IMG/VR virus record: IMGVR_UViG_3300028591_000019
Location: 13,408 to 77,407 of that record
Strand: one strand, 5' to 3'
Origin: a virus
Lineage: Duplodnaviria; Caudoviricetes
DNA length: 64,000 nt
The translations under genes were made by a program, and so were the position numbers. The notes under the pieces were generated by a model. It saw only the letters and a program-made list of their open reading frames with translations. It was not told the origin of the DNA and did no database searches. Below, in pieces: positions 14,024 through 39,272 of the stretch. Each line of letters begins with the position of its first letter. Position 1 is the first letter of the stretch.

Positions 14024-14395
14024 ATGACAATCGGAGAACGTATTAAACTGAGAAGGGCTGAACTGAATATCTCGCAAGGAGAACTGGCGAGTGCGGTCGG
14101 CATGAAACATCAGACAAGCATCAGCAAAATCGAACTCGGACAACGAGGTGTCCCGCTCCATTATCTGGAAGCGATTGCCGAAAAGCTAAAGACAACTCCC
14201 GACTATCTCCTTGGTCGGACGGATGACCCCGAAACAGGAGTTCCAAAATTTGTACAACAGTTTGAAGATAACAAGTTAGCAGAGATTAACGCATTCGCTA
14301 CTTTGCTGTCTGAAGAGAACAGGGAAACCGTAGTTTCGTATATGAGGTTCTTGTATCAAGAACAGATGAGGGCTTCTTATGCAGACAAAGCGTAA
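14024..14395 (+). CDS. Second XRE HTH repressor
   Basis: MTIGERIKLRRAELNISQGELA...SISKIELG...TTPDYLLG; AAGGAG ribosome site. Confidence 0.88.
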   Translation: MTIGERIKLRRAELNISQGELASAVGMKHQTSISKIELGQRGVPLHYLEAIAEKLKTTPDYLLGRTDDPETGVPKFVQQFEDNKLAEINAFATLLSEENRETVVSYMRFLYQEQMRASYADKA

Positions 14396-24149: not shown

Positions 24150-25041
24150 TACTCTCTAATCCCCGTTTTTTCTTGCATTGCCTTTTTATATAGGATATAA
24201 TGTACTCGCATCTTGAGGTCAGCATCTATGTTTTGTCCGTGTTTCTTCACCCCCTTTCTACGGGCAAACAAAAGAGAGAGAGGTTCACGCCCCTCTCTTT
24301 CTTTTTTTATATTTTTTTACCTACCCCTTATCTGGCATTTACATTTCCCGTACCGATTCTTTACCTACCCCCCGCCTACCCTTTACATATCCTTTATCCA
24401 ATGTCAATCTATACATTTACATTATTCTTATAGGACATTTCGTCATATTTTATCTAAGACATTTTTAAGACTATTTTGCAGAGCTTTATAGGGGAAGGAT
24501 AGCATAGTGCTGATGCGATTTTCGCCCTATGCATAGACTGCAAAATATCCCCCATATGCTGATATTGCTAGTATTTTAAACGGATTCCTATCCCCATTGA
24601 CACATTGTCATTATACATATGCATTACTTTATACATTTTCTTTCGGTTTACTTTTCAATCGTTAACGTGTTGATAGTTAACTAGTTAACAATCGCCTAGA
24701 GTGGCGGATTATAGCAGTTTTTCCCCATTATATATATTATTCTTGTATTATATATATATTATATATATCTCATAGATATAAGAATATTCTATACAAGGAT
24801 ATGCATAAGAAATGAATAAAGGTAAAAAATGAAATGAACATAAATTGAAATTGCAAAAAAAGAAGAAAAAAGTTAAAAAAATTTTTGTTTTGAGATGGGA
24901 TTGTTTGCGGATAGCTATACACGCGTGCGCGAGGATTGCACTTTTCAAGCGGATACAGTCGAATTGGATTTGATAAACTGTCATTGTCGCCAAGCCGAAC
25001 AGGCTTAAATTCAAGACGGCAAAAAAGAAAGGAATAAAGCA

Positions 25042-25938
25042 ATGAAACAGAACGTAAAGAAAGCAACCGCAAAGAAAGTCACTAACAGCGACAGAAAATC
25101 AATCATGTTGACCGCACACAAACTGAGCAATCACGGAAAATCGATGCAGTGGAAAACGGCACTCAAAACGGCATGGAAAGCGTTTAAAGGTGGATGCCTT
25201 GAATCCGTAACCGATATCGAATCGGCAATGATTTACGAGCTTGGCAAGGCAAGCGAAACGAAATTAATCGAAAGAATCGCTCATAAGTATTTGAGCAAAC
25301 TGGTCAGAGAATCAAAATCTATGAAAGATGAAAACGGCGAGCAGGTCGATAATGAGTTGTCAGTATCCGCACAAAAAGCGTTTTACCACTGGGGATTTTA
25401 TGGATTTGAGAACGAAACCTATCGGGATTACGTTCAGAATATCGCATTGGCTACAATGCGATTAATCCGCAAGCCCGACTATATCCAGTCTAAAAACGAC
25501 TGGAGGATAGAAAACGGATATGAACCATTGACTATTGTCAATCTTATTTGGAATGGGGCTTCCATCGGCTGGAATATGACCATGAAGCAAATTTATAATC
25601 GCATGAGAAAAAACGCAAAAACTCATAAGTATGAATATTTCAATGTTGATTCACTGGATAGAACTGCAATAAACAGTGACGGTGAAGAGTTTAACCAGTA
25701 CGATACTATCGACGCCGAATCCGTAAAAGGTCAGTACGGCTTTTCTAGCAAGACAGAATACTGGATGGTATGGGATGCAATCAAATCCGTTTGCAAGGAT
25801 GAAAAGGAGCTTGCAATTGTCGCATACAGGAAAAACGGAAACAAAACACAGAAACAAACTGCTGACTACATGGGATTGTGTCAGCAGAACATTGCTAGGA
25901 CATTGAAACAGATTGCAGAAAGATATCACGCAATTTAA
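25042..25938 (+). CDS. Sigma-factor-like protein with C-terminal region-4-type HTH
   Basis: 298 aa; C-terminal KTQKQTADYMGLCQQNIARTLKQI HTH; YVQNIALATM region-2-like segment; stand-alone with its own terminator. Confidence 0.6.
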   Translation: MKQNVKKATAKKVTNSDRKSIMLTAHKLSNHGKSMQWKTALKTAWKAFKGGCLESVTDIESAMIYELGKASETKLIERIAHKYLSKLVRESKSMKDENGEQVDNELSVSAQKAFYHWGFYGFENETYRDYVQNIALATMRLIRKPDYIQSKNDWRIENGYEPLTIVNLIWNGASIGWNMTMKQIYNRMRKNAKTHKYEYFNVDSLDRTAINSDGEEFNQYDTIDAESVKGQYGFSSKTEYWMVWDAIKSVCKDEKELAIVAYRKNGNKTQKQTADYMGLCQQNIARTLKQIAERYHAI

Positions 25939-25955
25939 TAAATGAATGGATGGAC

Positions 25956-25990
25956 AAAAAGACCGCCCACACATCGGGCGGTCTTTTTTT
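25956..25990 (+). terminator. Intrinsic terminator
   Basis: AAAAAGACCGCCC-N7-GGGCGGTC-T7. Confidence 0.85.
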
Positions 25991-26073
25991 ATGCCTAAAA
26001 ATCAAAAAATCTTTTTTCATAAAAAAATAATTTTTTGTGTAGTAAATCGGGATTTTGTGACTCTGTTATCAGT

Positions 26074-26136
26074 GCAAGGCAAGCAAGCGAACGCAAGCAA
26101 GCGAACGCAAGCGAACGCAAGCAAGGCAAGCGAACG
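26074..26136 (+). repeat. Short tandem repeat of GCAAGCGAAC / GCAA units
   Basis: Four GCAAGCGAAC units interspersed with GCAA and GCAAG. Confidence 0.85.
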
Positions 26137-26162
26137 AAAAACAGGAAGGATGGAAAAATAAA

Positions 26163-26327
26163 ATGACAATGTATGAAATTCTGAAAGAAATTGAAACAGT
26201 AAAAATCAAGATGAAAAATCATCGTTCAGAGTGGTTCGGGATGCTTGGTACAGAGTGGGAAAAAGCGGACTGGATGAAAAAACGCAATCGCTTAAATGAA
26301 CTGCTCGCAATGCTTGCAAGAGCATAA
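26163..26327 (+). CDS. Small hypothetical protein (not in track)
   Basis: Manual translation MTMYEILKEIETVKIK..., 54 aa, after motif copy 1. Confidence 0.5.
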   Translation: MTMYEILKEIETVKIKMKNHRSEWFGMLGTEWEKADWMKKRNRLNELLAMLARA

Positions 26328-26441
26328 TGCAAGCGAAAAACACACCATGCAGAAAATGAAAAAAATTTTTTCGTGCAGTGTAGTAAAACAAAAAATCGTG
26401 ACTCTGGTATTAATGACAAGATGAGAAAGGAAAAAAAGAAA

Positions 26442-26720
26442 ATGAACATGAAAATCAAAATCCTGCAAGCTAATATTTCAACACCGTACAAATTCCTGTC
26501 GTACAAAACTGCACAGCGTGAAAACTTTTCCCTGTTAGATTACGATTGTGTTTTTGATGGAGAAGTTGACGTAAATAGCCTTGACGATATTTTTGCAATT
26601 TTCAACACGGATGAAAGACCGAATCCGATGACAATGCATTCATTAAGCGTTTCCGATTTAGTCGTGACGAAAGACGGCACGTTTTATTGCGACAATTTCG
26701 GATGGAAAAAAATTCTATGA
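26442..26720 (+). CDS. YodL-domain protein
   Basis: ILQ...YKFLSY...DYDCVFDG...LDDIFAIFN...HSLSVSDLVV...FYCDNFGW. Confidence 0.8.
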   Translation: MNMKIKILQANISTPYKFLSYKTAQRENFSLLDYDCVFDGEVDVNSLDDIFAIFNTDERPNPMTMHSLSVSDLVVTKDGTFYCDNFGWKKIL

Positions 26721-26950
26721 AAGGAAATGAAAAAATGAAAGACGGAAAATTAATTGGGAAAGCTGTTATCTTGAAAGGCTTTAACGGTAGTCGGTCGGAT
26801 GACTGGGTGATTATAAAGGATTATGACGGGAAATATTACTGGGCATCTTTCGGCGATGATAAAATATGCATTCCGTTTTACAGAAATGAATTTATCGTGC
26901 CGAGAGATAACATAAAACGTGAATTTCGGAAATGCAGTAACCAAAAATAA
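26687..26950 (+). CDS. Hypothetical protein
   Basis: MKDGKLIG...; true start later than the track. Confidence 0.5.
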   Translation: MRQFRMEKNSMKGNEKMKDGKLIGKAVILKGFNGSRSDDWVIIKDYDGKYYWASFGDDKICIPFYRNEFIVPRDNIKREFRKCSNQK

Positions 26951-27009
26951 TATATTATTTCATGCTGTAGTAAAACAGAAAATCGTGACTCTGTAAAGGA
27001 TGAACAGAT

Positions 27010-27038
27010 AAGCACTCAAAAAAATGAGTGCTTTTTTG
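27010..27038 (+). terminator. Terminator-like hairpin just after motif copy 3
   Basis: AAGCACTCA-AAAAAA-TGAGTGCTTTTTT. Confidence 0.6.
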
Positions 27039-27087
27039 TTTGCTCTTTGCGGATGCAAAAAACAAAAAATAATGGAGGCACAAAAAA

Positions 27088-27858
27088 ATGACCACAAAAA
27101 AATCAATCTATGAATCATTCGGAATCCAGTTTGACGGTGAAAAAATTCTTTCCCCGATGGGAGCGATTCGTCCCCTGTTGAAAAATGGCAACACGAAAGT
27201 CGGAAAGAACGTGTACACGTTTTCAATCTTGCCTACAAACAAAATGTTTAATGTTGATGGCATAGAAATGAAAGGAACGTGTCCATGCACTTGCAAAGAT
27301 TGCTACGGCACAAAAGGATGCTGTGCATATGATAGCTCTGTCGCAAGCTATGCAAGGAATACAATTCTCGTGCGGAAACATCTTTCCTTTGTGCGTGATG
27401 CAATCATGGCACAGATTCTTGCGGATAAAATCCGTACGGTGAGAATCCATGCGGTCGGTGATTTCGATGGAAATGCAGAATATGTGGAGATGTGGAAAGA
27501 CATAATCCGCAAGAATCCAAACGTGCAGTTTTGGACATATACAAAGTTTGCTCAGTTTGGGAATGCATTCGATGAACTGCCAAACGGAAACATTGTAAAG
27601 TCTGTTATTCCGAAAATCGGATTCAATTTCGGGGAATGCGGATATGTAATCGATACATATCGGTACTTGAAAAGTATTGGGGAAGATGTGTATGTGTGCA
27701 GATGCGGAATTGACGATAATCAGCACTGCACACACTGCAAACATTGCAGTACACACAAGTATGTTCTGTTCGTCATCCATGGAAACGGATATCGTGCAGA
27801 AAAGGATGCACGATATGCAGAACTGGTGGAACTGATTGAGTCGCAGGATAGGGAATGA
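27088..27858 (+). CDS. GP88-family, radical-SAM-like protein
   Basis: GNTKVG, CPCTCKDCY (CxxxCxxC), RIHAVGDF, FWTYTK motifs. Confidence 0.75.
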   Translation: MTTKKSIYESFGIQFDGEKILSPMGAIRPLLKNGNTKVGKNVYTFSILPTNKMFNVDGIEMKGTCPCTCKDCYGTKGCCAYDSSVASYARNTILVRKHLSFVRDAIMAQILADKIRTVRIHAVGDFDGNAEYVEMWKDIIRKNPNVQFWTYTKFAQFGNAFDELPNGNIVKSVIPKIGFNFGECGYVIDTYRYLKSIGEDVYVCRCGIDDNQHCTHCKHCSTHKYVLFVIHGNGYRAEKDARYAELVELIESQDRE

Positions 27859-27878
27859 AAAATTCCCTATCTTTTTTT
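27847..27878 (+). terminator. Intrinsic terminator
   Basis: GATAGGGAAT-GAAAA-ATTCCCTATC-T7, directly before motif copy 4. Confidence 0.8.
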
Positions 27879-27937
27879 GAATGCAGTGTAGTAATTTGCG
27901 ATTTTGTGACTCTGTTATGTGTGGAAAGGATGAAGAA

Positions 27938-28186
27938 ATGAATATGACGATTGAGAGAAAAGCAAAACTGTACGACGGCAGATGTATGGATGTTTTCGGA
28001 CTGACGGAAAAAATGTCGACTGAAGAAAAGGCAAGAAAATTCGATACGCTTATAGCTTTGGCGATTATGGCAAACAGTGGCGATGAAGGTATCGATGTCG
28101 TTGGATGCATTTCCAAATTTGAGGATTTCGGCATGACTAGGTCTGAAATCAACGATGTATTGCGTAAAAGGTTCTTTGCTAACTGA
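27938..28186 (+). CDS. Hypothetical protein
   Basis: MNMTIERK... after AAAGGA. Confidence 0.55.
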   Translation: MNMTIERKAKLYDGRCMDVFGLTEKMSTEEKARKFDTLIALAIMANSGDEGIDVVGCISKFEDFGMTRSEINDVLRKRFFAN

Positions 28187-28279
28187 AATAATATATTATT
28201 TCGGGATGTAGTAAAACGCAAAAATGTGACTCATGAAGGGGTAGTATATCCAATTTTAAGAATGGAGAGGTGAAAATCT

Positions 28280-28498
28280 ATGTTCGGAATGAAGAAAACT
28301 GCAAAGAATGATGGGAAAAAGGCTTGTCTGATGCTCGTGAATTGTGGGTATGGCTTGTGTGGCTTTGAAGATGATTCTCATGCGTATGCGATTTATGAAA
28401 ACCGATTTACTGGAAAGCAAATCCGTTTTTGCATGGATGACGCAACATATGAACCGATTGATAATGCAAGAATCGTGCGAAGCTGTTTTGCACGATGA
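28280..28498 (+). CDS. Hypothetical protein
   Basis: 72 aa after GGAGAGG. Confidence 0.55.
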   Translation: MFGMKKTAKNDGKKACLMLVNCGYGLCGFEDDSHAYAIYENRFTGKQIRFCMDDATYEPIDNARIVRSCFAR

Positions 28499-28590
28499 AA
28501 AAAATTTATTTTCGATGTAGTAAATCGTGAAATTGTGACTCTGATATAAATGCAAACAAACGAAATCAATGAAAGGATGGAATTTGAACC

Positions 28591-28899
28591 ATGATGATGA
28601 AGAGATTTTACTTGAACGGATGCTGTGTCGATGATGCGGTCGTTGAAAAGCATACTACACGCTATGTGAAAACCGAAAGCGGTAAATCGTGGAGAAAAAC
28701 AGATGAAGAAACCGAAACCATAACAGCAAGGCAGTACTGCAACATTGTGGAGGCTGTTCCGTTCTTCCGTAATCTTGGGGGCAAGGAAATCGTAAGCAAA
28801 GGATATACCTATTACGGATATATACCGATTCAGATTACAAGCATCTCACCCGACAGGAACGCAAAGCACGTTTACCAGTTCAGTTTTAAGCTGAACTGA
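28591..28899 (+). CDS. Hypothetical protein
   Basis: 102 aa after motif copy 6; PFFRNLGGKE...ITSISPD. Confidence 0.6.
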   Translation: MMMKRFYLNGCCVDDAVVEKHTTRYVKTESGKSWRKTDEETETITARQYCNIVEAVPFFRNLGGKEIVSKGYTYYGYIPIQITSISPDRNAKHVYQFSFKLN

Positions 28900-29017
28900 T
28901 TTTTTAATTATGGAGATGTGAAAAATGAATCGTGCGATTTACAGACCGATGTTTAGCCGTTTGCTGTGTGCGGTGCTGATTGATATCGAGGAAATTTGAA
29001 AGGATGGTGCTGTGGAA

Positions 29018-29146
29018 ATGTTTGTCGAAACGCTAAGTGAAGCGAGGAAACTCGCAAAGGAAATCAACGGGACATACCGCAAGGTTGATAGCGGATGGTT
29101 GGTTCTTTCGTGGGCTGAATATCATGTATGGATTAACCAAAAATGA
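29018..29146 (+). CDS. Small hypothetical protein (not in track)
   Basis: Manual translation MFVETLSEARKLAKE..., 42 aa. Confidence 0.45.
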   Translation: MFVETLSEARKLAKEINGTYRKVDSGWLVLSWAEYHVWINQK

Positions 29147-29242
29147 CAAACTGGATGCATGAAAAAAATATTTTTTGAACGTGTAGTAAATTTGGAAAAT
29201 GTGACTCTGATATGAACGCATTAAGTGAAAGGAGAATGATGT

Positions 29243-29551
29243 ATGACTGAAAAATATATGCCCAAAGTTGGAGAAAAAGTGACCCTGTGCAATTGGTACT
29301 GTGCTACGAAAACTCCGTACACAGTTATCAAGGTAAGCAAGTCTGAAGTAACTGTGCAGGAATGCGAACTTCTGTTCTGTGGTGTTCGGCACTACGATAC
29401 TATTGCGGACGAAATCCGTGAGAATCCTAACGGACGGACGGCAACTCTGCGGTGGAGTCCGAAGCGTGGCTGTTGGATGGAGAGTCCTGTCCGTTCGTGG
29501 TCTGACCGAGCGGTGTTTGGCAAGTGGGAACACGAACCCTATCTTAACTAA
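29243..29551 (+). CDS. Hypothetical protein
   Basis: 102 aa after motif copy 7, GAAAGGAG ribosome site. Confidence 0.65.
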   Translation: MTEKYMPKVGEKVTLCNWYCATKTPYTVIKVSKSEVTVQECELLFCGVRHYDTIADEIRENPNGRTATLRWSPKRGCWMESPVRSWSDRAVFGKWEHEPYLN

Positions 29552-29566
29552 GGATGGTGATTTGAA

Positions 29567-29938
29567 ATGTTACAGGATGAAAATGCATTTGCAGAGAATC
29601 CGCAGGCAATGCGTGTTCTTGTCAAGTCTTTCAAGGACAAGGTAAAGACTTTGAAAAAAATTCATCATAATGCACTGATGACGCACAACAATCCGCAGAA
29701 AGTTATCGATGAGTTTGTCGATGCTGTCGGATATGAAAATGCCAAGAATGTTATCGCAAATTTGGTAAATGCGAGAGCGAAATGGGACGGAAGAATCTCT
29801 CCGAAAAATAAAGAATGGGCAAGCAATCTTGCGGACATCGACCGAGAAGTAATCACCTGCATATGTTATGCCGATGATGCGATTCACTCCGCACATCTTG
29901 ACCAACTTTGCGACTACATGAGAAGAAAGGAAGTGTAA
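29567..29938 (+). CDS. DUF3849-like protein
   Basis: WDGRISPKNKEWA...IHSAHLD. Confidence 0.65.
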   Translation: MLQDENAFAENPQAMRVLVKSFKDKVKTLKKIHHNALMTHNNPQKVIDEFVDAVGYENAKNVIANLVNARAKWDGRISPKNKEWASNLADIDREVITCICYADDAIHSAHLDQLCDYMRRKEV

Positions 29939-30089
29939 ATATGCCCGAGAAAGTATGGAGAATCACATTCGAGAAGAACGGCAGAGAATACTGGACAGCC
30001 TTGCGTGAATCGACAGCGGAAAGTGCTGTTGCACAGTTCATTGAATGGAACAAAGACGCAAAAGTTTTGACTGTAAAGGAGATGTAAAC

Positions 30090-30251
30090 ATGGAAAGGAT
30101 GTACCCCTGTGATGCAAGCGGAATGTGTCCGTATGAAACATTCGATAATCCAGAAAGGATGTATTTCTGCCGTGACCATTGCGGTCTTGGTGTAGATGAA
30201 TCAGATGAGCAGTACATTTGGGACGATGAAGAAAGTGAGGATGATGAATAA
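30090..30251 (+). CDS. Small Cys/acidic hypothetical protein
   Basis: YPCD...CPY...CRDHCGLGVDE with acidic tail. Confidence 0.55.
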   Translation: MERMYPCDASGMCPYETFDNPERMYFCRDHCGLGVDESDEQYIWDDEESEDDE

Positions 30252-30442
30252 TGATGTTGAAAGTAATGGATTTATGCAAGCAAATTCCAAAGATGCGTGT
30301 GCAGATTTGTAACGCATCCACATTGGAAGTCCTGTTTGAAGGTGTCATTGAAGATTGTCCGTATCGTATTTGCGACATGGATATCGAAAAGGTTGAAGCG
30401 CAGTTCGTAAACGGTGTTGACTATCTTATTCTTGCAGAATGA
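30251..30442 (+). CDS. Hypothetical protein
   Basis: 63 aa, coupled. Confidence 0.55.
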   Translation: MMLKVMDLCKQIPKMRVQICNASTLEVLFEGVIEDCPYRICDMDIEKVEAQFVNGVDYLILAE

Positions 30443-30457
30443 AAGGAGAATGAAGCA

Positions 30458-30751
30458 ATGTATTGCGAAAGAAAAAGAAATGTAAACTTGTCGGTAAGTT
30501 TTGAAATCCAGTTGGCAGATGTTATCCGATTGATAACTGCCAGTTTGGTGTGCGTTTATTATTCTGATGAGTTCGGGGATTCTAACTTCTTTGAAGCAAA
30601 CGGTGAAGGAGAACTTCGCAAAAAGGCAAAAGAAGCCAATGTCCTTGATGCAACAGTAAACAGTATCGGCAACTTGAATGGGAAAATAGTCATCCTTTGC
30701 GATAAAAAGTTGCAGACACTATCTGAAGCTTCCATTGATATAGATGTATGA
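30458..30751 (+). CDS. Hypothetical protein
   Basis: 97 aa, GAAAGGAG ribosome site. Confidence 0.6.
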   Translation: MYCERKRNVNLSVSFEIQLADVIRLITASLVCVYYSDEFGDSNFFEANGEGELRKKAKEANVLDATVNSIGNLNGKIVILCDKKLQTLSEASIDIDV

Positions 30752-30766
30752 AAGGAGAATGAAGCC

Positions 30767-31003
30767 ATGGCAAACAGTTTCAGAAAATATATCATGACGG
30801 ATTACAAAGAGGTTATCAAGAAAATGAAAAAGATTGGTGCGGAGAACATCCACGGAATCAGCGGAGAACATCGGGCATTGAATATGGAAACGAAAGAATG
30901 GAAACCATATTATACAATACATTACAACAAACGTGCGGAGTTTGAAATCAGTCCGTCCGTGTTGGACAAACTCGTTGAACTTGGTGTGCTTGTAAAAGAA
31001 TGA
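30767..31003 (+). CDS. Hypothetical protein
   Basis: 78 aa, GAAAGGAG ribosome site. Confidence 0.6.
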   Translation: MANSFRKYIMTDYKEVIKKMKKIGAENIHGISGEHRALNMETKEWKPYYTIHYNKRAEFEISPSVLDKLVELGVLVKE

Positions 31004-31326
31004 ATGGGGGTGCTGAGATGGGCAGGCGTAGCCGAGTGTGTAAATTTCGGAACAAACTCTTCCAGTACGATTTCGATAAATGCATGGTGTACTGGGTGAG
31101 CAAACCCACTAAATACATACTGGAAGATAACGAGGAGTGGATGTCAGAACATGGATATCCACTCTTCCCTATTAATGAAGATGGATACATGGATGTCAAA
31201 GGCATCGGTCTTTCCGAGATGAATTGGAAGGACAAAGAAGCAAGAAATGAGTACCTTGAAATGTGGTGTGATGAACTGGATGAAGAAACTCGCATTCTCG
31301 CAAAAGAATATGAACTATGGGGGTGA
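31000..31326 (+). CDS. Hypothetical protein
   Basis: RVCKFRNKLFQYDF...GLSEMNW. Confidence 0.6.
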   Translation: MNGGAEMGRRSRVCKFRNKLFQYDFDKCMVYWVSKPTKYILEDNEEWMSEHGYPLFPINEDGYMDVKGIGLSEMNWKDKEARNEYLEMWCDELDEETRILAKEYELWG

Positions 31327-31332
31327 AAAATA

Positions 31333-31635
31333 ATGGAGAAAAAGATGTATGAACTGAACGGATACAAGATATATATCGAGAAGACAAAATATGAATACAA
31401 TGGACGGCTTGCCGTGCAAGCATACATTGTGGAAGATGATGGATGGGTCGAACCTTATGGCACTATCACAGTCAATCTTCCTAACGAGCAGATAACCGAT
31501 AAGGACTGCGGATTTGTTGATGAAAACAATATGCCGTTCATTTCCGAATGGCTTGAAGAAAATGGACTAGCCGAAATTACTGGCAGGATTGGTATGAGCG
31601 GTTACTGCTTCTATTCTGAAATGAGATTCAAATAA
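31333..31635 (+). CDS. DUF4313-like protein
   Basis: YNGRLAVQ...EPYGTITVNL...FVDENN...WLEENGLA...SGYCFY. Confidence 0.75.
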   Translation: MEKKMYELNGYKIYIEKTKYEYNGRLAVQAYIVEDDGWVEPYGTITVNLPNEQITDKDCGFVDENNMPFISEWLEENGLAEITGRIGMSGYCFYSEMRFK

Positions 31636-31718
31636 AAAAATATTTTTTGGGATAGTGTAGTAATTTCCAAAATCGTGACTCTGTATACAACGAACAAAAA
31701 ATGAGAGGAGAAAAATGT

Positions 31719-32612
31719 ATGAACGTATATGAGATTGTTACAGACCGCATCGTGAAAGAACTTGAGAACGGACAGATTCCGTGGAAGAAGCCTTGGGTCG
31801 GCACGGAATACGCATGGGGAAGAAACAACGGAAAGTTCTACTCCATTCTGAATCAGTTACTGGTCGAAAAGAGCGGTGAATATGCTACTTTCGGAAAGAT
31901 TCAGAAAGATGGTGGCAAGGTTAAGAAAGGTGCAACGCACAAAGACATCTTCTGTTGGGGGATGCGAGAGTCCAAAACAGAAAAGGACAAGGATGGAAAG
32001 CCAAAGATGATTCCATACTTGAAATGGTGGCAAGTGTTCAACATCAAGGAAGACACCGACCTAGATGTTAAATATCACAAGGAACTGGTGCAGACATTCG
32101 ATACTGCTCCAATCGAGGAGATTGACCGCATCATTAATGATTATGCGGGGCGGAGCGGTGTGAAGTTCATCACCGATAAGGGATGCGACCGTGCCTACTA
32201 CTCCCCCACTGACCACACGATTCATCTTCCGAGCATCGAACAGTTTAAGAATGTTGCCCTGTATTACAGCACAAAGTTCCATGAGATGATTCACAGCACA
32301 GGGCATAAGTCCTTGCTGAATCGGTTTGAAAAGGGACAGACAAAGTTTGGGAGCGAGGTCTATTCCAAAGAGGAACTAGTCGCAGAGATTGGAACGGCTT
32401 GTATTCTGAATCGGTTGGGAATCGAAACGGATGATTCGTTCCGCAACAGCACAGCCTATGTGCAGAACTGGGCAAAGCATCTCAAGGCAGACAGCAAGAT
32501 GATTGTGTCGGCATCCAGTAAAGCAGAGAAAGCCGTGAAGTTAATCTTCAACGAACTGGACGAGAAAGAAAACAATAATGATGCCACCGAAATGGTGGCA
32601 TCTGTTGCATAA
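31719..32612 (+). CDS. ardC: ArdC-family antirestriction / ssDNA-binding protein
   Basis: IPWKKPW, YATF, GGKVKKG, VFNI, AYYSP, HEMIHSTGH zincin motif, YSKEELVAE, AYVQNW. Confidence 0.88.
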   Translation: MNVYEIVTDRIVKELENGQIPWKKPWVGTEYAWGRNNGKFYSILNQLLVEKSGEYATFGKIQKDGGKVKKGATHKDIFCWGMRESKTEKDKDGKPKMIPYLKWWQVFNIKEDTDLDVKYHKELVQTFDTAPIEEIDRIINDYAGRSGVKFITDKGCDRAYYSPTDHTIHLPSIEQFKNVALYYSTKFHEMIHSTGHKSLLNRFEKGQTKFGSEVYSKEELVAEIGTACILNRLGIETDDSFRNSTAYVQNWAKHLKADSKMIVSASSKAEKAVKLIFNELDEKENNNDATEMVASVA

Positions 32613-32626
32613 GAAAGGAGAAAAAT

Positions 32627-32821
32627 ATGTTTGGTGCAATGACGGTCGAACAGTTCCTGTATTTCGCAATGGATGATTGCGAGGTTGGAATCTTTAACCT
32701 TGACAGCGGAGATGAAGCTGTCTTCAAAACAATCGATGAAGCTGTAGCAAAGTACGGCAACTGTGATGTGTGTTCGTGGGATGTCGAGGACGGACACATT
32801 TGCTTGAACATTGAAGAATAA
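32627..32821 (+). CDS. Small acidic hypothetical protein
   Basis: 64 aa, GAAAGGAG ribosome site. Confidence 0.6.
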   Translation: MFGAMTVEQFLYFAMDDCEVGIFNLDSGDEAVFKTIDEAVAKYGNCDVCSWDVEDGHICLNIEE

Positions 32822-32823
32822 GG

Positions 32824-33162
32824 ATGGTGAAATGCATGACTGATATTAAGAATTTAACTCCGCACTCTATCGTGGTAATCCTGTCGGATGACATCCGATA
32901 CGTTATCACTCCGAGCGATTCTGTCGCTCGTTGTTCCTCTTCCACCGAGGTCATCGGTGAGGTGAATGGAGTTCCGCTGACTCGCACAATTTACGGTGAG
33001 GTTGTCGGACTCCCACAACCGAAAGAGAACACGATTTATATCGTGTCCACTCTTGTTGCACAGGCTTGTCCCGACAGGGATGACTTGTTTATCCCGAATG
33101 AAATCGTCCGTGACACAAACGGCAAGGTTATCGGATGCAAATCGTTCGGAAGAGTTCATTAA
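32824..33162 (+). CDS. NLTPH-motif protein, candidate Crn4-like ring nuclease
   Basis: KNLTPH...VAR...GEVVGLP...YIVSTLVA...RDDLFIP...VRDTNGKVIGC. Confidence 0.5.
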   Translation: MVKCMTDIKNLTPHSIVVILSDDIRYVITPSDSVARCSSSTEVIGEVNGVPLTRTIYGEVVGLPQPKENTIYIVSTLVAQACPDRDDLFIPNEIVRDTNGKVIGCKSFGRVH

Positions 33163-33176
33163 AGGGGATGAATAAA

Positions 33177-33326
33177 ATGCCAAATGGAAAATGGTTAATC
33201 ACATATCGAAAACGATTTGGTCGGAAAGAATATATGGCAATTATATATAAGGATATTACATTGCAGGAAGCAATCAAACGGTTTGAAGAGATATATCCTT
33301 TCGCTATAATCACATCAATCGTGTAA
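33177..33326 (+). CDS. Small hypothetical protein
   Basis: MPNGKWLITY..., AAAGGGG ribosome site. Confidence 0.45.
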   Translation: MPNGKWLITYRKRFGRKEYMAIIYKDITLQEAIKRFEEIYPFAIITSIV

Positions 33327-33338
33327 GGGGGAACGAGC

Positions 33339-33812
33339 ATGAATAAACATGGCGAACTGAAAATCATGACGGCAAAGGAACTGGTAGACACGTTCATCCT
33401 TGGAGATGCACAGGAAGGGATGGATTATGCTGTGCTTGACTTCACAAAGAAAGAACTGAACGGCATTCCTGCGAAATATCTTGATATCGAAAAAGTATAC
33501 GAGGATGCATGGGGATGGAACGGCATTCGAGTGATGGAAAGTCCGCTCGGTACGGAAGAAACCATCATCGTTATCGGACATTACGGTTCGATGATTTCGG
33601 ATTGCATGGCTATCAATGCAGAGAATCTTACCTACGATTGCTACGGCATCACAGAACGTATTCATAACACAATTTACAACTGCGGTGGTGAGGAATTGAA
33701 CGATGACACGCTTCTGATTGTCGAGATGCACGATGCGATGTATAAGCGTGCAGAGGAAGATGCGAAATGCGAAAGAATCCTTGCAGATGCCAAGAAAAAA
33801 ATGTGTATGTGA
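33339..33812 (+). CDS. Hypothetical protein
   Basis: 157 aa. Confidence 0.6.
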   Translation: MNKHGELKIMTAKELVDTFILGDAQEGMDYAVLDFTKKELNGIPAKYLDIEKVYEDAWGWNGIRVMESPLGTEETIIVIGHYGSMISDCMAINAENLTYDCYGITERIHNTIYNCGGEELNDDTLLIVEMHDAMYKRAEEDAKCERILADAKKKMCM

Positions 33813-33865
33813 TGTAGTAAACCACCAAATCGTGACTCTGTATAGAGCGAAAGGAGCAAAAACAA

Positions 33866-35113
33866 ATGGAAGAAAAGAAAAACGAAAACATTTATGCAAT
33901 TTGGGAATGCCACATGGATGAGCTTCGCAAAAAAGTAAAGACCATACAGAAGAAATGCGAAAAATACGGATGCGACTTCACGTTTGAAGAAGTTGGCGAG
34001 GAAATCCGTGAGGTAACAGACAGAGAACTGGTTGACCCTAACACTGGGAAGCCAGTTGTCCACCATCTCAAGTTCATCCTCGTCCATGCGGAAGGAACTG
34101 CTGTCATTAACGGATGGGAATTCGTTGCGTCAGTTGAACACACGGAAAACGGAAACATTTTCCGCAAAGCGATGACGGATGTTGAAATTCCGCAGAGATA
34201 TAGATGCTCTGACCCATACTGTGAGCATTGCAACAGCCACAGAATGCGGAAAGGGACGTTCATCGTTCGCAATGTTGAGAGCGGTGAGTTCAAACAAGTC
34301 GGACACAACTGCTTGAATGATTACACGCACGGAATGTCCGCATCGTTTGCTTCTTTTAATGCATCTCTGAAGTCCGTGTTTGAAGAAGCACAGAATCAAC
34401 CGATTAGCGGTGTCAGTTGGTTCGCAAAAAGCTTTGGGACGAGAGAAGTCCTCTGCTACTCCGCAGAAACGATTCGGCACTTTGGTTATTCCAAGTCTGA
34501 AAACGGATATGATAGCACAAAAGAACGTATGCGTAGGTTCTTTGACTGTCAGCATGGTGGTCTCTTTCCTAGCAAACTAAACGATGAAGTTCGTGAGCAG
34601 ATGGAGAGCGTTGGCTTCAATCATGAATCCGATGGAGCGAACAAGATGGTAGATGATGCTCTTGCGTGGCTTAACGAACAAGAGGAAAAGAATGATTACA
34701 TTCACAACCTCAAAGTAGCTTGCTCGTTGGATTACACAGCGTACAACAAGTTCGGACTTCTTGTTTCGCTATTCCCAACTTACACAAGAGAGATGGGATT
34801 GTATGAAAAGAGAGCAAAAGAAACGGAGCAGGGAAAATCTTCCGACTATGTTGGAAATGTCGGAGATAAGGTTGATGTTGATGTGGACAGCATCAAGTGC
34901 GTTACTTCTTGGGAATCTTCTTATGATGGATACCACACATCGGTAACGTACATTTGGAAAATCATAGGCAAAGATGGGAACGTGTTCACTTGGAAGACAA
35001 GCAAGTGGATGGACGAGGAGAATCCACCTAGGTTAATCAAGGGAACAGTAAAAGAACACAAAGAGTTCCGTGAAATCAAACAGACAGAACTTACACGGTG
35101 CAGGATTGCATAA
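33866..35113 (+). CDS. Large early protein with Zn-finger and C-terminal OB-like domain
   Basis: CEHCNSHRMRK...QVGHNCL; YVGNVGDKVDVDV...FTWKTS; after motif copy 9. Confidence 0.65.
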   Translation: MEEKKNENIYAIWECHMDELRKKVKTIQKKCEKYGCDFTFEEVGEEIREVTDRELVDPNTGKPVVHHLKFILVHAEGTAVINGWEFVASVEHTENGNIFRKAMTDVEIPQRYRCSDPYCEHCNSHRMRKGTFIVRNVESGEFKQVGHNCLNDYTHGMSASFASFNASLKSVFEEAQNQPISGVSWFAKSFGTREVLCYSAETIRHFGYSKSENGYDSTKERMRRFFDCQHGGLFPSKLNDEVREQMESVGFNHESDGANKMVDDALAWLNEQEEKNDYIHNLKVACSLDYTAYNKFGLLVSLFPTYTREMGLYEKRAKETEQGKSSDYVGNVGDKVDVDVDSIKCVTSWESSYDGYHTSVTYIWKIIGKDGNVFTWKTSKWMDEENPPRLIKGTVKEHKEFREIKQTELTRCRIA

Positions 35114-35133
35114 GAAAGGATGGTGCTTTGAAA

Positions 35134-35355
35134 ATGTCGGAAGCATATGACGCATTGTTTTGGATTTCGAGCGGTACGATGGGCATTCTGATGAGAGAGA
35201 AAACAGGAATCAAGGATAATCGGTACGATACGATAGATGATTTCCGCATCTTCGTTATCAAAGAAGCGCAGAAACTGGATACCCCCAACACAAAATCTTG
35301 GTTGGAACTATTCAACAGAATCGACTTTACGAAATATAAGAAAGGATGTGAATGA
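35134..35355 (+). CDS. Hypothetical protein
   Basis: MSEAYDAL... Confidence 0.5.
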   Translation: MSEAYDALFWISSGTMGILMREKTGIKDNRYDTIDDFRIFVIKEAQKLDTPNTKSWLELFNRIDFTKYKKGCE

Positions 35356-35356
35356 T

Positions 35357-35743
35357 ATGACATCTTACGATACAGAAATCAGATGCAGACTTTATACGCT
35401 CCTCGACCGTTACGAGGAACTGGACGGACTTTTTACTTGGGAGTTCATGAACAAAATCGCAGATGAATTTAGGTGGAGCAAATGGGAAAGACTGGATATG
35501 AGCATTGATGATGCATTGGAAGAGTATGCGGATGACAATATAGATAAATGGATTCGCCAGTTGAAAGGTAACAACCTCTACAGGGTCAAGGTTGTGCTTG
35601 AGTTTGATGTTGAATCCGCAGACAAACTGGATACGGTTGTCAGCAACGTAAAGGAACTGTTCTACGATAAGTCGGTGGAAGATTACGGTGCGATTAAGGA
35701 TGCTCGTTTAGTGAATGCGGTTGGAAAGGAAGTGGATGAGTGA
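35357..35743 (+). CDS. Hypothetical protein
   Basis: MTSYDTEIRC... Confidence 0.55.
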   Translation: MTSYDTEIRCRLYTLLDRYEELDGLFTWEFMNKIADEFRWSKWERLDMSIDDALEEYADDNIDKWIRQLKGNNLYRVKVVLEFDVESADKLDTVVSNVKELFYDKSVEDYGAIKDARLVNAVGKEVDE

Positions 35744-35849
35744 TATGAAACTTGCTGAAAAATTCATACAGTTGCTTCTGAAGTGGAAGATTGTGGAGTT
35801 CGTACATGATGATGGCGAACTTTATTTTTGGGAAGAGGAGAAATAAATC

Positions 35850-36155
35850 ATGGGATACTTCAAATGGAAGCCGAGCAAGGCACAAAAAGAAATATTCAAG
35901 AATAAGATGTGCGAGATAGAAAAGTTCTGTGAAGAAAACAATATCTCGCACTCTTCTTCTTATGACAGTTACTACTTTGAAATTAAAGGGCAAAAGTATC
36001 GTGTCAGTAATCATTCGCCAGAGAGCAGTCCCTACCATTGGGGAAGAGATGCCGACACACGTTATATCAACGCAAGCAAACTCCGCATCATTCAAATCTA
36101 CATTGATTTGATGTATGGAAGCAAACTGGACGGGCATGGATATGTCATTGAATAA
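35850..36155 (+). CDS. Hypothetical protein
   Basis: WKPSKAQ...YYFEIKGQKYRVSNH. Confidence 0.65.
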   Translation: MGYFKWKPSKAQKEIFKNKMCEIEKFCEENNISHSSSYDSYYFEIKGQKYRVSNHSPESSPYHWGRDADTRYINASKLRIIQIYIDLMYGSKLDGHGYVIE

Positions 36156-36164
36156 GAAAGGAGA

Positions 36165-36776
36165 ATGAATATGGGCTATAAAATGTCTGACTTTCGTAAA
36201 ATGTTTGCTGACAAAGTTTCGGAGTATCTCAACAGGGGATATATGTTTAACGAAAGAATTCGTAGTCTTGGCAATGAGGTTGTAAAGGTTGATTTGTTTA
36301 AAGGAAACGAATGCGTTCGCGTTGCCATTTTCCGTGAACACGAAAGCAATTGGAAGTCAAGCAACAGATATGACTGGTGGACGCTTGAACACGTTTCAAT
36401 CGTTGTAGGGAAATATAATGACCCGACAGGATGGAACGATAGGCTTGAAATTGTAGAGAGAAAGGATTTCTATAGCAAGGGCGAACTAAATGATGGGTAT
36501 TTTGTTGACAATAAAGATGAAGCAATCGAAATGTGCAGGAAACATTTCAGAAGACTTGATGCAAGGCATTTCCATGCGGAAAAAATAATATATTCTGAAG
36601 ATGTTAAGTCGATTGTGCTTCCGTTCGTCCGCAGACAGCCTAGGTGTGGCAGAAAGAAAGTCGAGGACATTGCTTCCGTTACGAAGTGTTCTATCGATGA
36701 ATACAACAGGTATATGTATTACAATGTCAGGCTTCATGACGGTAAAAACTTTCAGCTTATAGCTAGATGTAATTGA
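36165..36776 (+). CDS. Hypothetical protein
   Basis: 203 aa, GAAAGGAG ribosome site. Confidence 0.65.
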   Translation: MNMGYKMSDFRKMFADKVSEYLNRGYMFNERIRSLGNEVVKVDLFKGNECVRVAIFREHESNWKSSNRYDWWTLEHVSIVVGKYNDPTGWNDRLEIVERKDFYSKGELNDGYFVDNKDEAIEMCRKHFRRLDARHFHAEKIIYSEDVKSIVLPFVRRQPRCGRKKVEDIASVTKCSIDEYNRYMYYNVRLHDGKNFQLIARCN

Positions 36777-36796
36777 TTAGATGGGGGTGAAATTAA

Positions 36797-37234
36797 ATGA
36801 CGCTGTTTGAACTTTCAAAAGACCAAGTAAAGGAACTGCGTGAAGATTATCTCACACAGCATTTCAACAGCTTGTCGGAAACGGTCGATGACGTCACGGA
36901 TGAGATGCTTATCGAGGAATATGGAAGCACAGACTTCTCCAACGATGACTTCATGGCAAAGCCGAGAGAATGTGCTGACAACTATGAGGTGGCTGTCGAT
37001 TTTGAAGAAACAGAATGGTGTGGCAATTGTGACCACGAGGTTACGTTGCATTGGGATATCCGTGAGAATGGCTTCCGTGCATACTGCCCTTACTGTGGAA
37101 AGAGGTTAATGCTTTGCGATGCTTGTATGCATCGTTTTGGGGATATGCATGACAACTGGCAATCATGCAAGAACTGTCTGTTCAAGAATAAAGGATTTGC
37201 CAAAGATGATGTGTATGTATGGAACAAAAAATAA
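36797..37234 (+). CDS. Two-module hypothetical protein with Zn ribbon
   Basis: Acidic N-half plus WCGNC...CPYCGKRLMLCDAC. Confidence 0.6.
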   Translation: MTLFELSKDQVKELREDYLTQHFNSLSETVDDVTDEMLIEEYGSTDFSNDDFMAKPRECADNYEVAVDFEETEWCGNCDHEVTLHWDIRENGFRAYCPYCGKRLMLCDACMHRFGDMHDNWQSCKNCLFKNKGFAKDDVYVWNKK

Positions 37235-37481
37235 TTTTCATCTTGGTGTAGTAATCCTCAGATTTGTGACTCTGTATACAGCGAAAGGATAGTGATACAG
37301 AATGAAAAATCATGGTCGGTTTCCAATTTGGTTTACTGGAACTCGCAGAACACACTGGAGAGTAGTTTGGCAAAAAGAAGACGGCACATGCTGGTGCAAA
37401 TGGTACGGGCAGTTGATTGAAATAAACTGGGGTATTGCAATGTTCCGTACTGTTGAAAAGTATTAAAGGATGGTGATGTGA

Positions 37482-37739
37482 ATGCCGAGAAAGAAAAAGA
37501 CTGAGCCGAAGCAGACCGTCACGCATTCCAAGATGCGAACGCTTAACGAAATACTGGATGAGTTGGAAACATACAGGGCGAAATACGGAAATCGTCCTGT
37601 TGTTTCTTTCGGGGAAACAATGGGCGAATACAACGGAAAAACAAATCCTCATGTACTGCACGTTCGTGTAAGTGCGGATGAATGCAAGCCGATTTACTTC
37701 GCTTCTACAAACGACAAAGTTAGAAAGGTGGTCGATTAA
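37482..37739 (+). CDS. Hypothetical protein
   Basis: 85 aa after AAAGGATGGTG. Confidence 0.55.
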   Translation: MPRKKKTEPKQTVTHSKMRTLNEILDELETYRAKYGNRPVVSFGETMGEYNGKTNPHVLHVRVSADECKPIYFASTNDKVRKVVD

Positions 37740-37801
37740 TAATGGGTGCAATTATGGCGTATATTTTCCTGTTCGTGTTGGGGCTTCTGCTTTCATAAAT
37801 A

Positions 37802-38329
37802 ATGGGGTGCGAAACAATGGTCAAGATAGAACGAAAGAAAAAGACAAAAGAGTTTTATTGGGTGAATCGTGATGAAGGAACATTTTGTATGGACGGAGAA
37901 GTACACAACTTATCCGAGTACGATTTGAATGAAGTGTTCCGAGGTTCTTGTTTAAATGATGGGGTTCTGGAGAAGCACTTCCGTGTTATTCAACTGATGC
38001 GTGACATCGATGCGGATTGCTACTACACAAAGTACATGGACTTCACGAGTCCAGAAAAGGATTCACAATGTATCCAGTACAGATTCCTGTGCGGTAACGT
38101 CTTCGCATTGCACACAACAAAAGAATGCAAGCGGTTTTCCGAATTGCTTTCTCTTGTAGATGATTTCTGTGTGTGCGCTCCGCTTGAAGAGGAACGTGCG
38201 AAAGAACATGGTAATCATATCCTATGTGTAGCATTCAGTATCAACAATGTATGGAAGAAAAGTAACCTTGACTACATCCGACAAGAGAGGAAGGAATACA
38301 AAGGCAATGACAAAGGCAGATATGATTAA
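37802..38329 (+). CDS. Hypothetical protein
   Basis: 175 aa. Confidence 0.55.
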   Translation: MGCETMVKIERKKKTKEFYWVNRDEGTFCMDGEVHNLSEYDLNEVFRGSCLNDGVLEKHFRVIQLMRDIDADCYYTKYMDFTSPEKDSQCIQYRFLCGNVFALHTTKECKRFSELLSLVDDFCVCAPLEEERAKEHGNHILCVAFSINNVWKKSNLDYIRQERKEYKGNDKGRYD

Positions 38330-38579
38330 GGTCAAGCGTCACGGAAAGCTTCTCGCAATCGATACGGTATGCGGATGGCAGTACTGGGAATACGATGGCG
38401 CATTGTACTCTATCAATTCCGATGGCAATCCAGAACGGATGAGCATCTGGTGTTCGATGAGCAGACTGGATGGTCATCTGCATAGGCTGTGGAGAATCTG
38501 TGGGAAAAAGAAATTCACAGAATGTGATGATATGGTAATCGTAGACAAAGAAAGAATGTCCCAGTTCAGTTGGGCATAA
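38322..38579 (+). CDS. Hypothetical protein
   Basis: MIKVKRHG..., overlapping the upstream stop. Confidence 0.55.
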   Translation: MIKVKRHGKLLAIDTVCGWQYWEYDGALYSINSDGNPERMSIWCSMSRLDGHLHRLWRICGKKKFTECDDMVIVDKERMSQFSWA

Positions 38580-38598
38580 GAGAAAGGAGAAAAATAAT

Positions 38599-38838
38599 AT
38601 GGCAAAGCGTGGATTTAAAGATATATGTGACAAGTTGCAGAAAGCGCATAACATTCTTCTGGAAATTCTTGATGATGTGCAGGAGAAGCGTGACGCAATC
38701 GATGACAAGACGATGGAGTACGACAGGGATTATACGGATGCAGAGCAGGAAGCAATGGATGCTCTTGATGAAATCGAATCAAGTGTTGATGATGCTGTCA
38801 CTTCTATCGAAGAAGCGATGGACGCTTGCGGATATTGA
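38599..38838 (+). CDS. Highly acidic small helical protein
   Basis: 24 of 79 residues are D or E. Confidence 0.65.
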   Translation: MAKRGFKDICDKLQKAHNILLEILDDVQEKRDAIDDKTMEYDRDYTDAEQEAMDALDEIESSVDDAVTSIEEAMDACGY

Positions 38839-38853
38839 AAGGAGAATAATTCT

Positions 38854-39165
38854 ATGGATAAGCAATACGATGTAAAGATTTTGCTCACAAAAGAAGATGG
38901 TTCGACATATGATTACGATGCAACGGTAGAGTTTAGCCACGAGGACAACGACTACGGCAACGGCTATCATATGGGTATTCGGTCGAAAGATGAGCCGTTC
39001 GGATTCGGCGTGTATGACATCAGATATGATGTCGAGTTCAGAAAAGACCAAATCCTTGAATGGTTAATGGGTTGGTACGAGAGCAGATTCAATGGCAAGG
39101 GCGGAAGATGGGCAATCAAACGCTTCTCTATTGAAGTTAACGGCAATGTGAAAGAAGGGGCGTGA
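38854..39165 (+). CDS. Hypothetical protein
   Basis: 103 aa, GAAAGGAG ribosome site. Confidence 0.65.
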   Translation: MDKQYDVKILLTKEDGSTYDYDATVEFSHEDNDYGNGYHMGIRSKDEPFGFGVYDIRYDVEFRKDQILEWLMGWYESRFNGKGGRWAIKRFSIEVNGNVKEGA

Positions 39166-39191: not shown

Positions 39192-39272
39192 ATGCTTGAT
39201 ATCTGTCAAGCATATTTTTTACCCTATAATAAGACGTATAGTCTTGACGCATACATCACTATATGCTACAAT
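39192..39272 (+). promoter_or_regulatory. Sigma-A promoter with upstream inverted repeat
   Basis: TTGACG-N17-TACAAT at 39244-39272 with extended TG; inverted repeat ATGCTTGA-TATCTG-TCAAGCAT at 39192-39213. Confidence 0.7.

Follow-up and report, generated by a model that had tools for sequence, protein, structure and literature searches.

The window analysed here comprises 64,000 nucleotides (nt), bases 13408 to 77407 of the complete 77,407-base-pair (bp) virus record IMGVR_UViG_3300028591_000019, a phage genome with 127-bp direct terminal repeats. The minus strand encodes the portal, tape measure and tail proteins of a tailed phage, together with DnaB and RecT, and two tyrosine recombinase genes are present at 14379-15479 (integrase) and 39757-40725. 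A plus-strand arm, delimited by GC skew and open reading frames (ORFs), occupies ∼25.0 to 46.5 kilobases (kb) of the window and is opened by the gene for a sigma-like protein of 298 amino acids (aa). Downstream of this gene lie ten copies of a bipartite motif, TGTAGTAA-N11-GTGACTC, consisting of an 8-mer (box 1) and a 7-mer (box 2) separated by an 11-nt spacer; the minus-strand genes named above are outside the motif-bearing arm. A preliminary description of this DNA had proposed that the motif is a private promoter class read by the sigma-like protein, giving a two-step cascade that switches on anti-defence cargo. The array, the protein and their counterparts in related phages are examined here.

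An exact search returned the same ten positions that had been described, all on the plus strand between 26038 and 37272 of the window and all intergenic (Table 1), as opposed to no exact match in 100 dinucleotide-preserving shuffles of the window. Scanning of both strands of the full genome with up to two mismatches again detected these ten forward copies, with none on the reverse strand and none elsewhere; in the window, allowing three mismatches added only two sites (19646 and 46077), compared with a chance expectation of 1.44. The observation that no copy precedes the sigma-like gene was also borne out, to within three mismatches. In 2.9 million IMG/VR contigs, the exact pattern was found in 36, with one match each on either strand. 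These single matches are chance background and, as no other contig had more than one, the tenfold array is unique to this lineage. Scans of IMG/VR with the box patterns of two relatives exhibited the same behaviour. A full-text literature search for the box sequence gave irrelevant matches only, and Rfam at gathering thresholds gave no match between 24000 and 40000. A sigma-70 promoter scan detected 25 sites relative to 34.4 in shuffles, i.e., fewer than expected. The motif boxes are not sigma-70-like, and their consensus is a non-host one.

All ten copies, rather than most of them as first described, have an A/T tract upstream and a ribosome site and a gene downstream, with start codons located 26 to 100 nt after box 2 and preceded by strong AAAGGAGG-type ribosome sites. 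Nine copies continue with TG, as had been noted, the exception being the copy at 28207, which continues with AT; similarly, the copy at 27887 does directly follow a terminator, formed by a hairpin at 27845-27873. Alignment of the sites revealed, for this phage and two relatives (contigs L011 and L015), an A-tract and then a T-tract 6 to 21 nt before box 1, and the 3′ half of the spacer, previously described as variable, is A/T rich. Following box 2, a TG(n)TAT element is conserved, being present as TG-n-TAT at five sites and as TG-TATA at three, and a pyrimidine-G is conserved at positions 10 and 11. In three copies of this phage (27887, 33813 and 37247) and three of L015 (4456, 5981 and 7358), the Shine-Dalgarno sequence begins only 11 to 12 nt after box 2. 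If these sites are used, transcription must start within ∼11 nt of box 2, and hence box 2 would lie in the −10 region. The conserved pyrimidine-G is a natural candidate for −1/+1, a start site predicted rather than observed. With the conserved G as +1, box 2 would extend from ∼−17 to −11, the T(G/T)TATA from −10 to −5, box 1 from ∼−36 to −29 and the A/T block from ∼−57 to −42. The UP-element subsites of the alpha subunit's C-terminal domain are centred near −43 and −53, an A-tract followed by a T-tract being optimal (PMC3326320), and the position of the A/T block would, with this start, coincide with them. Judged from the letters, the layout matches that of bipartite promoters used by multisubunit polymerases of bacteria, and the ten sites are very probably promoters.

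Residues 223 to 298 of an AlphaFold model of the 298-aa protein match sigma domain 4, with Z scores of 7.0 to 7.9 and a root mean square deviation of 1.7 to 3.4 Å over 56 to 66 residues, the matched structures being nearly all sigma factors (4g6d_A, 3mzy_A, 6dxo_A, 8jzt_A, 2h27_D and others). A profile search of the PDB detected sigma-F (1l0o_C) with an expectation value (E) of 9e-4. The Pfam model Sigma70_r4 was matched at sub-threshold level by this protein (E 0.012) and in seven of nine family members (best E 0.0014), and NCBIfam yielded sub-threshold matches to SigB/F/G, SigE and extracytoplasmic function (ECF) sigmas in the C-terminal 100 residues of most members. For the N-terminal model (residues 1 to 195; predicted local distance difference test score, 82.6), the best matches were sigma-2 domains, with Z scores of 4.9 to 5.8 over 78 to 91 residues (sigma-28, 5.8; SigE-N, 5.3; SigR, 5.2; T4 gp55, 5.2; SigB, 5.0; also sigma-H and RpoE). 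A Foldseek search with the whole model gave a top 50 composed almost entirely of sigma chains, with weak E values (none ≤0.001). The nearest ESM Atlas clusters were mostly sigma families; by features these were viral sigma-like and helix-turn-helix clusters, and by structure mostly SigE-type and SigB/F/G-type sigmas of Bacillota. The modelled N-terminal half is consistent with a sigma-2-like domain, at a level below that which would stand alone. A D-x-x-Q-N/S motif and an invariant Trp are present where we take sigma regions 2.2 and 2.3 to lie, and the protein has an extra N-terminal module (residues 10 to 52) and an insertion in the sigma-2-like domain. No other sigma-region-4-like reading frame was found in the genome.

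The family is tiny. Six proteins were detected among 1.84 billion representatives and one more member in a profile search of 5.8 billion protein clusters, there being ten in all (nine relatives). Family profile scans of IMG/VR and GTDB genomes found no members, a metagenome scan with the family recovered only a fragment of this same phage, and tblastn against 50,697 GenBank phage records gave no match at an E of 0.01. Among PHROGs, the protein matched only phrog_11138, whose function is listed as unknown (E 2.6e-4). Two minor observations were made on individual members. The most distant one, P0009, exhibited a weak match of residues 1 to 99 to the NCBIfam model for the anti-CRISPR protein AcrIIA3 (E 0.01), which is below the cut-off and probably due to chance. 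In contig L012, an in-frame TAA within 360-430 interrupts the conserved N-terminal module, and the called protein, P0005, starts 35 residues late; this is either a natural truncation or an assembly error.

Arrays were compared on those contigs of sigma-like relatives that have downstream sequence, the 1,238-bp contig of P0009 being left out. Motif and gene co-vary among these phages, as would be expected from the preliminary description: each contig compared has a box-11-box array written in lineage-specific letters. The arrays begin right after the terminator of the gene with the same succession of an A/T tract, an 8-mer, exactly 11 nt, a 7-mer, a T-rich TAT and a gene, and all copies are downstream of the sigma-like gene and on its strand. 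Contigs L009, L010 and L013, with 82 to 87% protein identity to the 298-aa protein, each have one copy of TGTAGTAA/G-N11-GTGACTC before the contig ends. Nine copies of RGTTGTAN-N11-GTGACTC are present in L011 (55% protein identity), four of GGTTGTAA-N11-nnGrCTC in L012 (48%) and twelve of RGGAATAW-N11-GTGCTAC in L015 (42%). L014 and L016 (36 to 41%) have one copy each of GGTTATAW-N11-GTGAT(GC), the contigs again ending, and the most divergent array, in L249 (23%), has at least six copies of GGTTGTAA-N11-nCTGTTw.

Promoters of orthologous genes have kept their spacers and have had their boxes rewritten. The spacer ahead of ArdC is tttccaaaatc here and tttctaaaatc in L015, with boxes differing at 5/8 and 3/7 positions, and the spacer ahead of YodL is aacaaaaaatc here and aacaaaaaaac in L011. 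The GP88 and ArdC proteins (27088-27858 and 31719-32612) are 77 to 83% identical to those of L011 and L015, compared with 39 to 55% for the sigma-like proteins; either the sigma evolves much faster or cargo has been exchanged between lineages. The predicted recognition helix of domain 4 is CQQNIART in this phage, SQ(P/V)AV(H/S)KR in combination with GGTTATAW and GQSQVSKR with RGGAATAW, and it has the form ..QQAI(A/S)xR in P0004, P0005 and P0010, all of which are associated with GGTTGTAA-type boxes. P0010 shares this helix type with P0004 and P0005 though it is only 23% identical to the protein of this phage. The region-2.3/2.4-like helix, which contains the invariant Trp, falls into three groups matching the three types of box 2. 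The kept spacers, the closer similarity of the cargo than of the sigma and the helices following the boxes together indicate more than shared descent.

The sigma-like gene itself is monocistronic and has its own terminator. A host-type −10 element (TAAACT, TATACT, TATGCT or TATATT, then gt(c/t)at) is located upstream of the gene in every lineage with upstream sequence, and in L249 there is a full TTGACG-17-TAAACT promoter. A private motif was never seen upstream of the gene in these lineages. The host-type promoter and separate terminator around the gene lend support to the first step of the two-step cascade proposed earlier.

Within the arm, Pfam domains were detected for YodL (26442), GP88 (27088), DUF3849 (29567), DUF4313 (31345) and ArdC-N plus MPTase (31719), and the arm of L015 adds DUF3846 and DarA_C. 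PHROGs returned "unknown function" only for the other arm proteins tested, and ∼35 of the ∼40 arm genes are without an identified family. ArdC-N/MPTase and YodL are polyvalent-protein domains of Firmicutes mobile elements, and ArdC is an anti-restriction protein (PMC5512222). The earlier designation of the cargo as anti-defence therefore rests on ArdC and the polyvalent-protein-type domains; the label appears reasonable for part of the arm and is guesswork for the larger part. The motif is absent from the replication and structural genes. Megablast of GenBank phages with the arm as query matched nothing, and tblastn with DnaB gave distant matches only, the best being from human faecal viromes. 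We infer a host among the Bacillota, solely from the strong ribosome sites and the nearest sigma folds.

The motifs are likely to be private promoters read by the host core polymerase together with the divergent sigma-like protein of the phage. The pairing of this promoter class with the 25042-25938 protein, as first suggested, is supported by the folds, the arrays of the relatives, the kept spacers and the tracking of boxes by helices. Host sigma-A would transcribe the sigma gene from the extended −10 at 24971-24979, this transcript ending at 25957-25994, and the sigma-like protein on host core polymerase would then direct transcription from the ten promoters. Domain 4 would read box 1 (TGTAGTAA, ∼−36 to −29), the sigma-2-like domain would read box 2 with the T(G/T)TAT behind it (∼−17 to −5), the A-tract/T-tract block at ∼−57 to −42 would serve the alpha C-terminal domains, and transcription would start near the conserved pyrimidine-G, 10 to 11 nt after box 2. 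In this way, ∼13 kb of accessory genes (26163-39165), including the ArdC anti-restriction homologue, would be switched on. The statistics of the motif, its site anatomy, the protein folds and the co-variation across lineages are observed; binding to core polymerase, the positions and timing of initiation and, for most arm genes, a part in anti-defence are what we infer. A phage-encoded single-subunit or multisubunit polymerase was considered as the reader of the motif and rejected; no such enzyme turned up among those large proteins that were checked, and the UP-like tracts favour the host enzyme. As a tentative and somewhat doubtful extension, the proteins may constitute a new, fast-evolving phage sigma family that serves solely to operate a counter-defence arsenal, with boxes and helices re-coded in each lineage. 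If so, at least five natural "dialects" exist at a fixed 11-nt spacing, neither host sigma-A nor related phages infecting the same cell have a hold over the arsenal, and the promoter is a tag marking ∼40 small genes per genome as candidate anti-defence genes.

Several points weigh against reading of the motifs by a sigma-like protein on core polymerase. The distance of 11 nt between the 8-mer and the 7-mer is shorter than in classical sigma-70 promoters, and the sequence behind box 2, TG-n-TAT or TTTATA, looks like an extended −10, such that a host-sigma component is possible. Pfam Sigma70_r2 (PF04542) was unmatched in nine family members and in the genome, and every curated sigma model scores under its cut-off (TIGR02937, 16.3 versus 42.9). 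The assignment of sigma-2 is weak, with Z scores of at most 5.8 in a helical domain, and Foldseek with the N-terminal model found nothing at an E of ≤0.001. Furthermore, co-variation within one genome does not by itself identify the factor, of phage or host, by which the boxes are read. The weakest links of the proposed mechanism are the sigma-2 assignment and the position of the start site.

In the main alternative, host sigma-A would read a weak extended −10 after box 2 and the boxes would form an asymmetric site, centred near −30, for a phage activator, which might be the sigma-like protein acting through its helix-turn-helix only or another phage protein (compare T4 MotA/AsiA and class II activation). 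Such an arrangement would suit the TG-n-TAT and TG-TATA elements after box 2 in this phage and the TTTATA and TAnnAT-like hexamers in L015, and of the protein's parts only the C-terminal helix-turn-helix has a confident assignment, the sigma-2 evidence being weak. These −10 elements would, however, put starts 14 to 18 nt after box 2, cutting off the Shine-Dalgarno sites in at least six promoters, and from one promoter subclass to another the TAT is displaced by one base, with the pyrimidine-G keeping its place at positions 10 and 11. In addition, the N-terminal half resembles sigma-2 and its region-2.3/2.4-like helix groups with box 2. We consider activation of host sigma-A unlikely. Recognition by a host alternative sigma, for example one of the sporulation or stress type in Bacillota, with the phage protein being unrelated, seems very improbable. 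The nearest folds of the phage protein are SigE/SigF/SigB-type sigmas of Bacillota, so that the promoters could mimic such a class. The specificities of host alternative sigmas are generally conserved across related hosts, however, and at least five box dialects were observed among phages with cargo proteins that are 77 to 83% identical; moreover, the arrays always begin right after the sigma-like gene and the recognition helices follow the boxes.

The preliminary description had raised an alternative in which the copies are recombination joints for gain, loss and shuffling of cassettes. Gene order between copies does differ among lineages: the 54-aa gene is before GP88 here and after GP88 in L011, and DUF4313 is before ArdC here and after ArdC in L015. 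Promoter-terminator cassettes of T4-type phages, the promoter early stem-loop (PeSL) elements, are also documented substrates for shuffling (PMC2839356). As a primary function, recombination is contradicted by the co-orientation of copies with genes, the UP-like tract, the fixed distance to ribosome sites and the asymmetry of the boxes, as well as by the change of boxes in concert with a DNA-binding protein and by the limited extent (∼15 to 30 bp) of sequence common to the copies. While the repeats probably also serve as recombination substrates, with shuffling as a side effect of repeated promoters, there is little chance that this is their main role. Equally little chance is given to the copies being operators at which a repressor would silence the arm, such as in a lysogen. 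Integrase genes are present in the phage, a cI-type helix-turn-helix gene occurs in a relative and the arm might need silencing, but neither box repeats the other in direct or inverted form, most sites have no host-type −35/−10 pair to occlude, the promoter scan being below the shuffle expectation, and the position relative to ribosome sites is fixed.

Phage-encoded sigma factors are well known as the switches that turn on middle and late genes. In the Bacillus phage SPO1 (gp28 and gp33/34), host sigma-A transcribes the early genes, including that for a phage sigma, which redirects the core polymerase to promoters of non-host consensus; middle and late development is governed by the SPO1 sigmas, which supplant the transcription of the host. 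The proposed cascade, host sigma-A and then a phage sigma, is alike (for context, PMC13401047). It differs from that of SPO1 in serving a dispensable-looking island, the rest of the phage appearing to be on other promoters, and in using a different protein family. ECF (group 4) sigmas have an autoregulated promoter, a co-transcribed anti-sigma and an AAC −35/CGT −10 signature. The apparent layout of a sigma-2-like domain and sigma-4 without a clear sigma-3, the conserved bipartite promoter and the small proposed regulon are shared with this group, whereas no motif upstream of the sigma gene (no autoregulation) and no anti-sigma candidate were identified here, the boxes are without AAC or CGT, the protein has its extra N-terminal module and its sigma-2-like insertion, and TIGR02937 is under its cut-off.

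The phage proteins phiEco32 gp36 and gp47 of Salmonella phage 7-11 (promoters GTAAtg-N16-aCTA) are sigma-70-family proteins acting on host core polymerase; these sigmas are homologous but have dissimilar promoter consensus sequences at similar genome positions, and host sigma-70-type promoters serve the early genes, the path leading to the sigma among them (PMC8948821). A sigma-type protein together with a phage-specific promoter class is common to these phages and the present one, although function was determined experimentally there and is predicted here. There is no detectable sequence similarity, their promoters drive essential middle and late genes rather than an accessory arm only, and in the present phage there are 11 nt between the 8-mer and the 7-mer. 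PeSL cassettes have strong sigma-70-like host promoters with stem-loops and contain small, non-essential genes (PMC2839356). A repeated promoter, partly with terminators, and gene content and order differing among relatives (the window, L011 and L015) are shared with these cassettes; in contrast, the consensus here is a non-host one that changes with a phage sigma-like protein, and terminators are present at some copies only. ArdC-N plus MPTase and YodL, together with DUF3849 and DUF4313 here and DUF3846 and DarA_C in L015, recall the polyvalent-protein and leading-region sets of conjugative elements (PMC5512222), but in this tailed phage they are in separate small genes, singly or a few together behind predicted private promoters, and are neither fused nor part of a conjugative leading region.

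In function, the phage sigma cascades are the nearest known systems. The present phage differs from them in a protein family with no detectable sequence relation to those sigmas, a proposed regulon without replication or morphogenesis genes and a well-resolved series of dialects at fixed geometry, and a literature search for a phage sigma devoted to anti-defence genes brought up no paper. If a sigma is indeed kept for an accessory island that contains ArdC, the switch would be put to another use here. The relatives would represent natural sigma-promoter pairs with identical geometry and different boxes, in which orthologous promoters show the changed bases; such pairs could be useful for determining how sigma domains read DNA and for orthogonal expression systems in Gram-positive bacteria. 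Through the promoter, anti-defence genes could also be sought by their regulation within the dozens of small ORFs, an idea that is also behind discovery based on regulatory sequences in archaeal viruses (PMC11065993).

Table 1. Positions of the sigma-like gene, predicted promoters, terminators and transcription units in the window
Feature	Position	Strand	Remarks
Putative host sigma-A-type extended −10, TG-a-TAAACT	24971..24979	+	∼63 nt before sigma gene; read from the sequence
Sigma-like gene, 298 aa	25042..25938	+	Helical N-terminal module; sigma-2-like, ∼52-187; sigma domain 4, 223-298
Intrinsic terminator closing sigma gene unit	25957..25994	+	12-bp GC-rich stem plus U run; −23.8 kcal/mol, z −5.8
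Predicted private promoter 1, for 54-aa gene at 26163	26038..26063	+	Predicted start at ∼26074
GCAAGCGAAC-type tandem repeats	26079..26136	+	Leader of predicted first private transcript; sequence
Predicted private promoter 2, for YodL-like gene (26442-26720) and 71-aa gene	26379..26404	+	Orthologous promoter in L011, L012
Predicted private promoter 3, ahead of GP88-family gene (27088-27858)	26966..26991	+	Exact motif match
Hairpin plus U run in leader of promoter 3	27010..27039	+	−19.4 kcal/mol, z −5.9
Terminator after GP88, directly before promoter 4	27845..27879	+	Hairpin
Predicted private promoter 4, for 82-aa gene at 27938	27887..27912	+	Shine-Dalgarno starts 11 nt after box 2
Predicted private promoter 5, for 72-aa gene at 28280	28207..28232	+	Only copy without TG; orthologous promoters in L011, L015
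Predicted private promoter 6, for 102-aa gene at 28591	28516..28541	+	Exact motif match
Predicted private promoter 7, for ∼9-gene operon (29243-31635) including DUF3849, DUF4313	29182..29207	+	Exact motif match
Predicted private promoter 8, for ArdC (ArdC-N plus MPTase, 31719-32612) and following genes	31656..31681	+	Ortholog in L015
Predicted private promoter 9, for 415-aa gene at 33866 and following genes	33813..33838	+	Exact motif match
Predicted private promoter 10, for 37302-39165	37247..37272	+	Exact motif match
Proposed regulon, ∼40 small genes	26163..39165	+	YodL, GP88, DUF3849, DUF4313 and ArdC identified
Terminator ending motif-driven arm	39192..39220	+	9-bp stem plus U run; z only −1.8
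Putative host-type promoter TTGACG-17-TACAAT, opening next, motif-free unit	39244..39272	+	Sequence

Terminators accompany only some of the motif copies (25957, 27010, 27845 and 28876). The hairpin in the leader of promoter 3 starts within ∼20 nt of that promoter, and the same arrangement, with another stem sequence, was observed at 9416-9500 of L011; this hairpin is a candidate for an attenuator or for the end of a ∼50-nt RNA. Promoter 1 has a counterpart in the same position in L009, L010 and L013. The leader that follows it contains four to six tandem GCAAGCGAAC-like repeats, and similar (A)CGCAAGC repeats are present in the first leader after the sigma gene in L012 (∼1590-1625), L013 (∼2075-2110), L015 (∼3215-3250) and L016 (∼1140-1205). 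GCAAGC-like words were also detected in the leader of the sigma gene itself. Possibly, an RNA- or DNA-binding regulator binds to this array of leader repeats. At the other end of the motif-driven arm, the near-consensus TTGACG-17-TACAAT is followed by small genes and by the second tyrosine recombinase gene (39757-40725), whose product matches Phage_integrase with an E of 4e-27.

Two further elements were observed ahead of the sigma gene. In the divergent region between the minus-strand early arm and this gene, 24676-24707 contains the palindrome GTTAACTAGTTAAC and then, 5 nt on, CCTAGAGTGGCGG; the latter element is almost invariant in five lineages and has an AT-rich (TA)n stretch after it. 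This region is a possible operator or origin. Closer to the gene, at 24875-24925 (∼150 nt before it), an A/T tract is followed by TTTTGAGA-N11-GCGGATA and then by GCTATACACGCG, a stretch that has both the geometry and the TATACA..CG tail of the private promoters, with different boxes.

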